Assembly: GCA_963514005.1 (NCBI GenBank)
Contig: OY740818.1
Span: 22,506,001 to 22,570,000, forward strand
Reading direction: 5' to 3'
Length of the DNA stretch: 64,000 bases
Source: Raja brachyura
Lineage: Eukaryota
Part shown: positions 2,340-63,352 of the stretch, piece after piece
Layout: each line of letters begins with the position of its first letter
How positions within the stretch are numbered: the stretch's first letter is position 1
The notes under the pieces: generated by a model
Databases searched by the model: none
Told to the model about the DNA's origin: nothing
Seen by the model: the letters and a program-made list of their open reading frames with translations, nothing else
Made by a program: the position numbers and the translations under genes

Positions 2340-2467
2340 GTGTTAAAGTAGGAACTGCAGATGCTGGAGAATCGAGGGTTACACAAAAAGCTGGAGAAAC
2401 TCAGCGGGTGCATCTAAGGAGCGAAGGAGATAGGCGACGTTTCGGGTCGAGACCCTTCTTCAGACTG
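2340..2467 (-). mobile_element. Short non-autonomous Penelope terminal-repeat element with an intact minimal hammerhead core
   Basis: Reverse complement reads CTGAAGA-A-GGGT(CTCG)ACCC-GAAA-CG-TC (2436-2463); flanked by AACCTC direct repeats (2334-2339 and 2468-2473). Confidence 0.85.
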
Positions 2468-4214
2468 AACCTCATCTCTAAAGCTGTGGATCAGGTATTC
2501 AAGATCAAAATTGGGGGAAGCATGAGCAGGCTCACTCTGCAGGTGAAGAAGGTCTGAATGAGACAAACTCAATGAAGGGAAATGCAGGGAAGACTAGGGG
2601 TCCATGCGAGAGAAAATAAAATCTTAAAGACGTGCCTACGGGAGCATCAAACTCTAGGGTTACAAACCAACAGTTCTACAGGAGCAGATCTCTCAGGAGA
2701 TGTCTGAAACCATTCTACACGCAAGTAGAGCTGCAACCTCCTAGCTCCAGTGAGCTGAATTCAATCCTGACATCCAGTGCTGTTGTTGTGGAGTTTAACA
2801 CATTTTTTCCATGACTATGCAGGTTTTCCTTTTTCCTCCCACATTCCAAAGACTGGGTTAATTGGTCACTGTATTTCTACTCTAGTATGCAGTAGAACTT
2901 TGGCGTTGGGAATGGCATTGATGGGAATGTGGGGTAAATAAAATGGGATTCATGTAGGATTGGTGTAAATGGGTGTTTGATGTTCGCACATATTCTCCGG
3001 CTGAAGGACCTGTACCTGTGCTCTCTGACTTTATGGTTGAGTGCTCCAGGTCATTTGTGGACCACTCTCTGCCAAGGTGACAACTAAATGTGTGCTGTTT
3101 AGTACTACGACAAACATCCCAGCACCTTCATATGCAAGTACATGGATGATCTAGAAACAATTAGGTGTTATCGACACAACTTGTGAAGTAATGTAAACAG
3201 GGTTTTGGATGAAACTCCAATAGTGCAGAGAAAGATGTGCAAGTAAATTTCTAAACTATAGAATTTCAGTTTAGAGGGGTATGGGCCAAGCACGGGCAGG
3301 TGGATTAGTCGGAGCATCTTGGCCGACATGGGCATGTTGAAGACTCTATATCCATGCTGTATGACTATAAATTTATATGCACATACACTATACAATATTC
3401 AATTAAAGATATTTTCAAGTATTCTTATGTCTATTACATACTCCAATTACCTTCTCACACATTCAAGCCTTATAGAAATATAATCTGCCTAATAATTCTT
3501 CTAGGTATTACATCATGGGGCCCGATATCAATCGCACACATGAGTTGCAAGATTCACAAGATTCCGTTGTATCTAGACTGCTCCATCTTTATCATTAAAT
3601 GATTCACTATCCAGACAAACAAGTTAAATTACACTATATCCCATTATATTTCAATGTAAACTCCCCAGAGAAATACTCAAATCAAACTTGTTCTAAATTG
3701 TGCAAGAGCTACAATATAGTTTAGATGCTTTTATTCCCTTTTACCTTGTTGTATAAATGCTTGTTTATTTTAATTTTAAAATATGTTATTTATTTTACTC
3801 ATTCTTTGCTCTCTCTCTCTCGCTGCACATTGTACTACTTCCTGTCTCCTTCCACAGGCTCTCTACACAACATGCTGAAGTTAGGACACTGAGCTAAAAA
3901 TCATTTTCCAGAACTTCACCACTTCTATTCTTTACCTAATCACATGACTATAACATTTCCCTTCCTTCCCTCAAGAAACTACGATATGGTTTACAAACAC
4001 GAGCCTGGTGGGCAAGTGATGGGCACAGTGATGTATAAATGTGTAAACAACAGGACATCTTGAAGTATGATTGAAGCAGTTTGCCATCCCTGTAAAATTA
4101 TGATAGAAAACCCAAGTAGTAATAAAATAATAAAATCATGACACACTATGCAAAAGGGTTTTTAGCAAACTTGTACATTGTGCTGCATGCAACAAAGGAA
4201 TTGCTTGTACTTAC

Positions 4215-4372
4215 TTCTTGAAGTTTATTTCCGGGAAATTGGAATACTCCGGTTTTAGTTTGTTACTCCGTCGAGGGAATGTACAAAAAAAGGCATTGGC
4301 CAGAAGGCAGGCTATTTGTTCTTGTGACATTGTGATGGAGTGATTCATCTTCTGCTTAAGCAATGGTATCGG
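4215..4372 (-). CDS. PARG: PARG exon 9 ([52 protein letters not shown])
   Basis: 158 nt; gtgccag| and AA|GTAAGT; near-identical to the N-terminal part of the PARG catalytic domain; hand-translated. Confidence 0.98.
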
Positions 4373-7300
4373 CTGGCACGAAAGGAGGCAAGGCAGAGGT
4401 CATTAGTTTATTAATTTAGCAAACAGAAGCAAAATTACATTTACCAAATGATAGTACATACAGCAATTTAGTAACACTGCTGCAATCTACAAGCAGCACG
4501 GTGGTAGTAGTTTCATTTATCTCACTTAATTAGAAAAATCATCTTATTTGAAGTATTACTGATTTCCAATATTTTAGAATCCCTTAAATTAATTGTTATA
4601 AATGGCACAAAAGCCACAATATAGAATGGATGCTTTGATTCCTTTTTATATTGTAAATTATCTAAAAATATGATTAAGACTTTGGTGATCCATGAGATAT
4701 TATTTTCTCTCTCCCCCTCCCTCTCTCTTTCTCTCAAGGGTTTGATTTTTCAAGAGAGTTTGATTTACCTCTTAGGACTAAGGGAATCAAGGGATATGGG
4801 GAAAAAGCCAGAACGGGGTACTGATTTTGGATGATCAGCCATGATCATATTGAATGGTGGTGCTGACTCGAAGGGCCGAATGGCCTACTCCTGCACCTAT
4901 TTTCTATGTTTCTATGTTTATTGTAGCTGCAAAACTAGACTGGGGGAGGTTTATGTTAACAATTTACATGGACCTCTACAACGCAGAAAACTTAAAAGAG
5001 TTGCAACAACCATCTCTATCTCTCTGGACCTCTCCAAACTGCTATTCTGACATGCAGCAAAGCAAAAACAGATATTTCATTCAATTAAAATAAAGCTATT
5101 CTGCTCAATCGCCTCTCACAAGCTCTATTCCCTGCCCACAAACTCTGTCTGAAACTCAACCATGCTATTTACAATCGTGGTGTCATATCAGACTCTGAGC
5201 AGAGCTTTGCAGAACACATCAATGCCATCATTAAGTCTGCATTTTCCACCCTCTGTTGTATTGCCCAGAGCCACCTGTATTGGTTTATCCACCATCGAAA
5301 ATTCATCCAAGCCTTCATTGCTTTAAAACCTGATTATTTCTGGGCACTCTTAGCTAGCCATGTTCACTCTAATGGGCCAATGTAAAAATTGCTGCACTAA
5401 TTTGCATTGTTCTATTCATTCCATTATCTCACACTTGCTGACCTATATCACCACTTAGTTTAGCAATGCCATGTTCTTATCAACCCATCCCTTGCCTCTC
5501 CCCTGTCCTTGACCTTTTTCAATCGTACAATTGTCTTTGTTCTCTGTTCCCCTCAAAAGCACTACATCTGGTGTCTTCTCTTGAACTATCTCTCTCCCTC
5601 CCTCCACCTTTCTTTTGATCCTTCCAATTTTCTCAATTCTCTCTTTGATAAAATATATCCCAATATCTCCTTGTGGTCTGCTGTCATATTTTGTGGTAAC
5701 ATTTCTGCAAACTATCTTTGGATCCGCTGGTGCATAGTGGCGGTATTTAGTGATAATTTTCATTGCTTCTGCGGCAAAACATAAAAATCTGTTCAATCGT
5801 AATTTCAATATTTTCTAGCACGATGTGAAATGCGACATCCTAACATTCACCGTGAAGTAAAATCTTACATTTAAAGGATACAATGATCCCTGTGCATTTG
5901 TGATTAATGTAATTGACTTCAGTGCTCATTTATGAAGAGTTAGCTTTCTTTTAACTCATAACTACCTTCATTTTTTTATATTTAAGTAAAATATCTATAT
6001 ATCTATATAATATATATATACACACACAGTTATATTTTTAAATGTATATCGATCTTGAAGGTTAGGTAGAATGATACACCAAAGAAAATTACCCTCCTTT
6101 AATGGAAATGAAAAATAACTGCCAGATCAATGTTTCTGTGAGAACAAACTGTTCAGGATAAAAAGGATAGAACTGCTAATTCTGTGCATTTACAAACCGT
6201 CCATACATTACTTGCACAATAGCATTGTAGAATATTTTCATTAAATTTGTCTTTTCATGAAAAGGCAGATATTTTTAATCACAAAATCTTTGCAAGTAAA
6301 TTAAGTTAACAACCGTGGGTCCAATACCTTTGTTTAACATAATGCAGAGCTATATATGTGGGGAAACTGTCTCTCTCTGGGTTTAATTGCACATAAAAAA
6401 AGGAGCTAATCTAAAACTTTCCTTGCATGTTTGCTTCCAACTTCCATCCGGATATCAAATTATAAGCTGTTCTGTTGGAAGGAACTGCTGATGCTGGTTT
6501 AAACCGAAGATGGACACAAAATCTGCTTAAGCAATGGTATCTCAGCTGGAGTAACTCAGCGGGTCAGACAGAATCTCTGGAAAAAAGGAATAGGTAATGT
6601 TTTGGGTCATGACCCTCCTTAAAACCTGTTATAAACTGTTCCGAATTACTGTAGCATACTCTACATCCAACTTCCAACTAATCCAATTAGAAGCAAACAA
6701 CTGGCCACTTTTTGGATGTGTTTGGTGAAGACACCGACAGTTTCAATATGGAGGGACAGGTGGGATTTATTCACATTGTTACCAATTTATTCTTGGTATG
6801 AGATGGCAAACAGTAAATTAAATTATGGAATTATTTGAATGTATCTAATTTGGTGGCATAGAAGGAATTCGTCAGGTTCCAAATAAAAATAACATATTTA
6901 TCCAAATATCCAAAATATATCCATTGATTAAACCAATTGACTGATTTGATGGAAATCTACTTTCCTTAAACATGGTAAAACTCTGATAATCTGTTATCCG
7001 ACCATTCAGAAATCCTAGGAACAAAGAACTGTAGACGCAGGTTAATACAAAAGGACATAAAATGGTGGAGTAATTAGCAAGTCAGGCACCATATCTGAAG
7101 AAAAGTAATAGGTGACATTTGGGGTCTGAACCCTTCTTTAAACTCAGTTCCGACCTGCAACATTCTGGCCTGAACCGCAGAGTTACTCCAGCGTTTGGAT
7201 CTATCTTCGGTGTCAACCAACATCTGCAGTTCCTTCCTACACAGCATCTCTGGAGAACATGGATAGATGACATTTTGGGTCGAGACCCTTCTTCAGACTG

Positions 7301-62282: not shown

Positions 62283-62645
62283 TCTTATAATATATAGCTA
62301 TTAAAAATTCAATAAATTACTGGCTGTAATATTAGGTAGTCACGGGTCAGATTCATGGTTGCTTAGGTTAGTGTTGTGCAGTGTTCAAGAACGTGACGGT
62401 TGCTGGGAGTAGCCATTCTTCAATGTAGTGGTCATAGTTTCGTAGGATCCTGTGCCATCTTCCTGTTGGTACGAGCAAAATGAAAACATGGCCAGGGTGG
62501 TGTGAGTCTTAGATACTGGCTGCCTTTTTGTTGGGTTTATTAGTTTGGGCTACATTTACTGCATCTGTTCTATAAGGAAAAAAATATTCAAAAAAACTTG
62601 ACTTTCACTGACATTTGAGGACGAGAGTTCCAAGCACATGCATCC

Positions 62646-62945
62646 AGTACCCTCCATAATGTTTGGGACAAAGACCCATCATTTATTAATTTGCCTTTGT
62701 ACTCCACAATTTGAGATTTGTAATATAAATAATCACATGTGGTTAGAGTGCACATTATCAGATTTTAATAAAGGACATTTTTATACATTTCGGTTTCACG
62801 ATGTAGAAATTTCGGCAGTGTTTATACATTAGTCCCCATTTCAGGGTACCATAATGCTTGGGACACATGGCTTCACAGGTGTTTGTTATTGCCCAGGTGT
62901 CTATAAATGCCTCCTTAATACAGGTATAAGAGAGCTCTCAGCACC
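62646..62945 (+). mobile_element. Tc1/mariner left-end fragment
   Basis: Starts CAGTACCCTCCATAATGTTTGGGACA, with an internal direct repeat accataatgcttgggaca about 200 bp in (IR/DR-like); no transposase. Confidence 0.65.
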
Positions 62946-63082
62946 AAGGCTATGCTGTTGAGCATTTGATAACATAGTCGAGAATGTATTATTGTCATGT
63001 GCTGAACAAAACAATAACATTCTTACTTGCAGCAACTTAACAGGTTTGCAAACACTACACAATAGATAAAATAAGAAACAAA

Positions 63083-63352
63083 GAGACTCAAAAACTGGAG
63101 TAACTCAGCGGGACAGGCAGCATCTCTGGAGAGAAGGAACGGGTGACATTTTGGGTCAAGACCCGTCTTCATTCCTTCTCTCCAGGGCTTTGTCCTGCGT
63201 TACTCCAGCTTTTTGTGTCTATCTTTGATTTAAACCAGCATCTGCAATTCCTTCCTTCATGTAAAAAAACAAACATTTTTAAAAAAATGGCTAAATGTGT
63301 AAGGAGGAGCTGCAGATGCTGGTTAAACCGAAGACAGACATGAAAAGCTGGA
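63083..63352. mobile_element. Penelope-derived short units, inverted arrangement
   Basis: ctggagtaactcagcgggacaggcagcatctctgg… followed by the reverse-complement unit ttactccagctttttgtgtctatc…ccagcatctgca. Confidence 0.75.

Follow-up and report, generated by a model that had tools for sequence, protein, structure and literature searches.

The 64,000-nucleotide stretch of the Raja brachyura genome analysed here (the window; contig OY740818.1, positions 22,506,001 to 22,570,000) is scattered with short repeat units carrying a minimal hammerhead ribozyme, which lie across the genes PARG and RPS24. We propose, with a probability of roughly 0.7, that these units are copies of the pseudo-long terminal repeat (pLTR) of Penelope-like elements (PLEs), made when reverse transcriptase (RT) starts inside the unit on uncut RNA and runs off a fixed 5′ end at CAGTCTGA, which is probably the transcription start. 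The short units look like dead by-products that record how PLEs copy, rather than a self-spreading ribozyme or an agent that cuts introns. Element positions are numbered with the A of CAGTCTGA as +1.

The units and their source elements

Searches with an nhmmer model iterated from seven window copies (unit length 92 nt) gave 36 matches in the window and none in the reversed window, and by manual count these matches group into about 25 insertion sites, or about one per 2.6 kb. The pervasive repeat described in the initial annotation, at a claimed density of about one copy per 3 kb, is therefore real. All 17 positions listed there have a match at or beside them, the sequence given for the best cores, CUGAAGA-A-GGGU(CUCG)ACCC-GAAA-CG-UC, is confirmed, and support was found for the description of a defined unit of Penelope origin whose minimal type I hammerhead has ACGU as the palindrome of stem III. 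In the sample of introns used below (101 intronic stretches, 1.05 Mb) there were 463 unit matches and none in the reversed control; this density of 0.44 per kb extrapolates to about a million unit fragments in the 2.7-Gb genome, to which all genome-wide counts refer.

The core contains CUGANGA, GAAA and UH, an extra nucleotide before stem II, the G10.1-C11.1 pair and palindromic positions 15.2-16.2. The minimal hammerheads of metazoan PLEs (Cervera and De la Pena 2014, PMC4209133) likewise have a type I core, an unpaired nucleotide before stem II, a G-C closing pair and a 15.2-16.2 palindrome, and the text of that paper available to us also describes opposite-strand pairs and thousands of dispersed single motifs, ascribed to truncated PLEs. 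Helices II and I, of 4 and 2 bp here, are like those of the D. virilis variant and shorter than in the S. mansoni families (7-8 and 4-5 bp). The copy number is far above that of the elements treated there, with 28,355 exact cores in one family, and a fixed start just before the core is not reported in the available part of the paper.

The flanks upstream of the units sort into at least three families, each with a different pyrimidine-rich 3′ untranslated region (UTR). Positions +1 to +31 are identical in the three consensuses despite open reading frames (ORFs) that are only 81-85% identical, which suggests selection in the master elements, for the ribozyme, for a promoter or for both. The youngest family, F0, has full-length copies elsewhere in the genome (L280, L279 and L281). 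L280 comprises a unit from -22, the ORF, the 3′ UTR, a further unit, a tail and a target-site duplication (TSD), and both L279 and L281 have intact ORFs of 1192 residues. These ORFs contain the PLE-type motifs DKG and YIDD and match RVT_1 (E 2e-4) and GIY-YIG (E 2e-3), both below the Pfam cut-offs; no sequence relative of the ORF was found in the PDB. Their linker reads CNRKRCYTC (CYRRKCYTC in the long copy in the window) and agrees with the CX2-5CxxC definition common to Neptune and Nematis (PMC8557442). Partial-tandem pLTRs, a tail of 30-40 bp, inverted 5′ copies and TSDs, which are hallmarks of endonuclease-bearing (EN+) PLEs, are all present. The Neptune-type EN+ PLEs of Craig et al. (2021, PMC8557442) similarly have a single ORF with RT, a CX2-5CxxC linker and a GIY-YIG domain at its C terminus, and show partial tandems, an inverted 5′ copy and a 30-40 bp tail at one end; unlike the elements in the available text of that paper, most copies here consist of the pLTR only and have a sharp start. 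Judged by these features, the units are the pLTRs of at least three Neptune-type families, with linker and host group together pointing to Neptune rather than Nematis. The unit makes up the first ~135 nt, ahead of an ORF whose ATG lies near +167, and so serves as a 5′ UTR as well as a terminal repeat.

Some further features of the long copies were noted. A head-to-tail tandem of full-length F0 elements (L323-L324, contig C1:38833315 and 38837245) is a candidate master arrangement, and at L295 (5971-9228, minus strand) two long antisense frames of 472 and 613 residues overlap an F0 copy. One 3′ UTR haplotype of long copies is crowded near the end of contig C1, with 62 matches in the first 10 Mb and 25 in 10-150 Mb; short copies starting at +2 on the same contig are less skewed, with 31 matches up to 10 Mb and 69 between 10 and 70 Mb. 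The crowding may reflect a subfamily or the removal of long copies.

Fixed starts, fixed ends and a proposed run-off model

Short copies have fixed boundaries at both ends. Among 100 F0 copies with an exact core, the 3′ end falls at +93-98 in 56 and, with the classic tail included, at +130-135 in 32, and the TSDs are about 14 bp. The 5′ ends were read from 75 young F0 copies picked by a downstream anchor: 44 start at -4 to +5, 10 at +6 to +15 and three at +16 to +47, none starts at -5 to -107, and the remaining 18 extend further upstream. The stop rate is thus 0.116 per nt in a 10-nt interval compared with 0.0013 on either side (~90-fold), so that 0.8 stops would be expected among the 62 copies at risk where 44 were seen. 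Exact 41-mers counted genome-wide follow the same pattern, with 38,995 occurrences at +47 to +87, 28,355 at +4 to +44 and 2,626 at -41 to -1, and no fewer than about 6,000 exact copies have their start at +2. The older families show the same clustering of starts, less cleanly.

The hammerhead cleavage site lies at +32, and only one of the 75 F0 copies begins there. No peak of starts at +32 was seen among 239 anchored copies from all loci either, a set that is biased to intact cores and leaves room for a share below 1-2%. We therefore take the template to be uncut RNA, as for the Anolis Poseidon element in vitro (PMC11167929). A hammerhead-cut template was considered and, at any share above 1-2%, rejected for want of a +32 peak.

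What lies at +1 is suggestive of a promoter. CAGTCT is kept in the three families despite their differing upstream sequences, and it fits the initiator consensus YYANWYY. Furthermore, G precedes the +2 starts of F0 in 3,335 cases genome-wide and C or T in no more than 2,792, giving G a share of 0.54 where ~0.29 is expected; in the sampled non-inverted copies it does so in 11 of 18 (p=0.005). Such an excess fits what an untemplated or cap-copied C on run-off cDNA would give, and on this sequence pattern it is likely that transcription starts at +1.

The model that we favour can be set out as follows. RT would initiate inside the unit at two sites, corresponding to the two 3′ ends, as was measured for Anolis Poseidon, and both nicked strands of the target would be primed. 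The cDNA would then run off the 5′ end of the uncut element RNA and may meet one of three fates: joining to the target, pairing with its counterpart cDNA through the TCAG-x-CTGA palindrome, or a return to the RNA at +190-290, by which pLTRs would be regenerated. The available text on Anolis Poseidon describes initiation at two internal sites, with uncleaved RNA serving as the chief substrate and RNA 3′ of the initiation site being required (PMC11167929). Solo units do not include this 3′ stretch of RNA, on which the protein depends, and so by analogy with that element they would be dead on arrival, with hammerheads expected to decay neutrally. The Anolis element (PAc; Frangieh et al. 2024, PMC11167929) is also alike in its two 3′ ends ~35 nt apart, in the hammerhead near the ORF start, in copies made from uncleaved RNA and in the use of both strands. 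It belongs to a different clade and its ORF starts inside the hammerhead, whereas the ATG here lies ~135 nt past the cleavage site; the position at which cDNA stops is not addressed in the part of that work available to us.

The inverted copies bear on how the target is primed. Among 109 short F0 copies, 34 have an inverted arm, and the junction often lies at the TCAG-x-CTGA palindrome. In 15 of 20 pairs one arm is short and the other tailed, where 44% would be expected (p=0.005), and 13 of 20 are enclosed by a single TSD of at least 9 bp. Head-to-head pLTRs with palindromic junctions, one tail and a TSD round the whole insert, as well as solo pLTRs, are known from the Penelope elements of Adineta vaga (PMC3846280), where the available account invokes self-priming on an antisense template as the origin of the palindromes. 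Since the two arms end at different fixed sites, the pairs described here fit priming from both nicked strands, with one initiation site each, better than self-priming. A separate set of inverted copies, of family F2 (L002-L004, L006, L012, L014-L018, L021-L023, L025 and L030, on contigs C54, C934, C1388 and others), share flanks and were co-amplified with a leucine-rich-repeat, NLR-like coding sequence, the translation having been read by eye; these represent segmental duplication.

Chimeric copies are consistent with jump-back. An ORF-start 38-mer occurs 643 times genome-wide, and by manual count about 22 of 30 loci containing it run from the unit into the ORF as far as +188 to +290 and then restart in a unit or its 3′ UTR. 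The ORF endpoints cluster near +206 and +233, and three of the 30 loci run on as long or tandem copies. We infer that the chimeras may derive from cDNAs that, after run-off, re-engaged the RNA immediately 3′ of the initiation sites. No obvious mechanism for the regeneration of pseudo-LTRs and inverted ends was known for PLEs (PMC2377424), and the function of their hammerhead has been called unclear (PMC8557442), in each case going by the text available. More tentatively, and with rather less than even confidence, these steps could be joined into a strong-stop cycle like that of LTR elements: the mRNA would start at the first base of the hammerhead, a dimeric protein would prime both strands ~100 and ~130 nt from the cap, run-off and jump-back would regenerate the pseudo-LTR, and the million or so solo and head-to-head units would be failed strong-stop products.

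Dispersed minimal hammerheads, inverted pLTRs and tails have already been published for PLEs (PMC4209133, PMC8557442, PMC3846280); what goes beyond the available text of those papers is the sharp 5′ boundary, the rule of one site per arm and the jump-back chimeras. In the literature, taken without supplements, Repbase or Dfam, where the families may already be catalogued, we found no description of such a fixed start in a cartilaginous fish. The youth of F0, its intact ORFs and its tens of thousands of near-identical members allow predictions at the level of single bases: an RNA start at +1 or +2, initiation at ~+97 and ~+133, jump acceptors at +190-290 and no use of cleaved RNA, all of which are testable by the published in vitro assay.

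Several points weigh against run-off at a transcription start. Of the loci that supplied the 75-copy set, 30 lie within the first 1.4 Mb of a single contig. The 2,626 occurrences of the -41 to -1 sequence are a floor, understating long copies because that 41-mer matches one haplotype only. None of three near-full-length copies starts at +1 (they start at -22, +38 and +44), though several second-round ends do. The excess of G is absent from 50 mixed-family solo copies (3 of 14 at +2), and inverted junctions add G to the genome-wide count. A motif resembling a downstream promoter element stands 3 nt nearer +1 than the Drosophila spacing. The +1 region, with its pyrimidine tract and CAG, also resembles a 3′ splice site. 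In D. virilis, hammerhead helix I marks the end of the intron (PMC4209133), with a transcription start ~120 nt upstream (PMC4209133; PMC2377424), according to the available text.

These last points would suit an RNA that extends further upstream, on which RT stops near +1 through structure, a bound protein or processing at the acceptor-like CAG, the copies being dead by-products all the same. We consider this unlikely, but it is the best of the alternatives. The tract and CAG are found in all three families, the D. virilis architecture (PMC4209133, PMC2377424, as far as available) offers a precedent, three ORF-to-unit joins have A-rich filler at -3 to 0 (L252, L261 and L275), and the starts are spread over ~10 nt and trail to +15. 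Counting against such an RNA are the 0 of 75 copies that stop at -5 to -107, the G excess before +2 in F0, the lack of any shared upstream exon before the short copies and long copies that are not depleted in the sense orientation in introns (27 sense, 19 antisense). A spliced template was also considered and rejected, both for want of a shared upstream exon and because one candidate junction, the donor-like junction at the ATG lying outside the probe, has a mere 10 genome-wide matches, of which the one inspected is a TSD. Removal of the whole ORF by splicing would be possible in L280, where a donor-like AAG|GTATG (5340-5350, element +160 to +172) coincides in part with the ATG and the unit is preceded by an acceptor-like pyrimidine tract with CAG. 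No clear splice joint was seen in assembled contigs (4 of 24 runs, most of them only guessed to be RNA, from which start, strand and level cannot be read).

Independent spread, intron cleavage and truncation

The initial annotation had suggested that the ribozyme-bearing end spreads by itself as a unit resembling a short interspersed element (SINE). Transcription from solo copies and mobilisation in trans, in the manner of a SINE or a retrozyme, would explain the sharp ends, the TSDs of their own and the fact that about three quarters of young copies are short; solo copies would be transcribable if +1 were the start of an internal promoter, and Xenopus retrozymes derive from pLTRs (bioRxiv 10.64898/2026.07.22.740005). 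The haplotypes do not support it. When 110 short and 81 long F0 units were compared, the common haplotypes had similar frequencies (reference 31 and 24, G45A 19 and 13, T84C 16 and 14), and among these 191 units no short-only haplotype reached three copies; the long set was enriched by the choice of loci, which leaves the haplotype comparison unaffected. Since short and long copies share their haplotypes, there is no SINE-like lineage, nor a subfamily of the short units' own. Three variants are short-only at nominal p 0.02-0.04 among 25 tested, and some at least lie in heavily diverged copies. The non-LTR retrozymes, reported in one chondrichthyan, are likewise pLTR-derived, non-coding and hammerhead-bearing, but in the available text of that preprint they form tandem arrays with a hammerhead in every repeat, whereas the units in the window are solo or head-to-head (tandem arrays elsewhere were not searched for) and the partial tandems have variable chimeric junctions. 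In addition, the RNA of the ORF start, a requirement of the Anolis protein, is missing from solo copies. We therefore regard self-spread as improbable, and well behind an upstream RNA.

It is more improbable still that intact cores cleave host introns often enough to matter, as dimers. The suggestion was founded on the cores at 2436-2463 and 40493-40520, which are indeed intact and on the minus strand, like PARG. The PARG part of the window contains three fully intact cores, those two and one at 40527-40554. The last two are the opposite arms of a 102-nt hairpin, 99% complementary and inside one 15-bp TSD, and the 40493 core is thus likely to be sequestered in the pre-mRNA. The ACGU palindrome would permit a dimeric stem III, and weak cleavage, in dimeric form or with the help of protein, is described for PLE hammerheads (PMC4209133 and PMC11167929, in their available text).

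The orientation of copies gives no sign of such cleavage. When the strand of the myosin, USP and PARG genes was read from the order of their Pfam exons, 219 intronic matches proved sense and 244 antisense (p=0.26). Matches with core and stem II intact number 46 sense and 30 antisense (p=0.08, the reverse of a depletion), strict cores 20 and 17, and by class the counts are 58 and 65 for solo, 27 and 19 for long and 41 and 32 for inverted copies. The orientation bias proposed as a check is therefore absent. Since a control repeat in the same introns, the 3′ end of a long interspersed element (LINE), is also unbiased (82 and 95), only strong selection is excluded.

The cores themselves do not appear to be maintained. 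Core and stem II are kept in 76 of the 463 matches, and CG in 46 of these 76. Stem I has 2 bp in 50 of the 76 and at least 3 bp in only six, short of the 4-5 bp of helix I. In 216 aligned copies the covariation proposed as a second check was not found: double changes in stem II number 2, 0, 0 and 1 per pair, which is the chance level, and only one-sided U-G variants occur. Non-CpG core positions in the same alignment are conserved at 0.93-0.98, compared with ~0.92-0.96 outside the core, and CpG positions decay. The cores thus decay at the rate of their flanks, and the predicted folds lack the active hammerhead form. For the host genes the result is negative, and the copies behave as neutral intronic debris.

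Least probable of all is a random 5′ truncation of which the units would be the shortest products, in line with the treatment of solo motifs as truncated PLEs in the available text of PMC4209133. Long copies do truncate roughly evenly at ~0.0013 per nt, but the 44 stops against 0.8 expected refute this reading for F0.

Copies in the window and neighbouring features

A young solo F0 unit with a tail at 2340-2466 (minus strand) starts at CAGTCTGA, contains the core at 2436-2463 and is flanked by a 6-bp TSD (2334-2339 and 2468-2473). The young head-to-head F0 pair at 40427-40654, both of whose cores are intact, lies between 15-bp duplications (40412-40426 and 40655-40669); its left arm ends at the short site (+97 region) and its right arm has the tail (+132). 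Another tailed solo unit, at 28835-28959 (minus strand), has a 16-bp TSD (28819/28956) that overlaps its start by 4 nt. Its U-G changes had been called stem-preserving; the stem II change is one-sided and the core is broken (CUGUAGA, GAAG). The target duplications previously ascribed to several copies hold for these three. Most older copies have no detectable TSD, since an automated check found one of at least 8 bp in 3 of 24 strong window matches and in 1 of 24 controls.

The older units include a decayed one with a tail at 6473-6625 (minus), a cluster of three fragments at 7018-7299 (7055-7143 minus, 7168-7196 plus, 7241-7299 minus) and four units at 20565-21513 (20565-20654 minus; 20738-20824, 21195-21259 and 21422-21513 plus) with a small ORF fragment near 21097. 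Solo units lie at 23181-23274 (minus), 24683-24773 (plus) and 47182-47264 (minus). The unit at 34273-34349 (minus) has an internal deletion, that at 39781-39908 (minus) starts inside stem II and is joined to a short inverted piece, and a decayed unit lies at 44035-44112 (minus). The region 53376-54653, between the PARG ATG and RPS24 exon 2, contains a solo unit (53891-53980), a fragment (54603-54653) and two near-identical composite clusters, 53376-53554 and 54391-54576, which lie 1033 bp apart and represent a local duplication between the PARG ATG and RPS24. At 56904-57853, within an RPS24 intron, are a decayed inverted pair (56904-57019) and a short unit at 57788-57853 (minus) with a 10-bp TSD. 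A further decayed inverted pair with additional tail pieces, at 63086-63352, is the origin of the microRNA-like matches obtained from Rfam, which gave no hammerhead family and nothing at gathering score in the window, its best matches being sub-threshold microRNA models at the 63.2-kb hairpin.

Two long copies are present. The element at 36980-38345 (plus strand) is a 5′-truncated, frameshifted Neptune-type copy of family F2 that retains RT motif 4 onward, a CxxxCxxC linker, GIY-YIG, a pyrimidine-rich 3′ UTR and a terminal unit; its 36980-38124 portion is 82% identical to the full-length F0 element. It had been presented as the parent of the short copies. The RT and GIY-YIG fragment does end in the repeat unit, but, being truncated, frameshifted and of family F2, with a decayed core (38251-38281, plus; a U-U mismatch in stem II and the stem III palindrome ACGU changed to ACAU), it is not their source. 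A second long copy, at 51164-52030 (plus), was missed in the first reading and consists of the EN region, an F0-like 3′ UTR and a unit at 51946-52030.

PARG occupies 1-52722 on the minus strand, with its ATG at 52722, and continues beyond the left edge of the window, its catalytic exons lying 22-51 kb to the left. The coding exons of RPS24 (56614-58420, plus strand) lie near 56614-56682, 58007-58220 and 58310-58420, these bounds being approximate. A second, compact PARG-like locus was found on contig C1282 (11309-13330). The window also contains a second abundant repeat (1269-1482, 4799-4921, 12898-13403, 25885-26289, 31041-31293, 52258-52360 and 53570-53659), which is the LINE 3′ end that served as the orientation control and which we take to be CR1/HER1-like. 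An RT fragment of another retroelement lies at 9524-9961 (minus; RVT_1 E 1e-5), and a 68-bp tandem repeat of ~8 copies occupies 54676-55213, upstream of RPS24.

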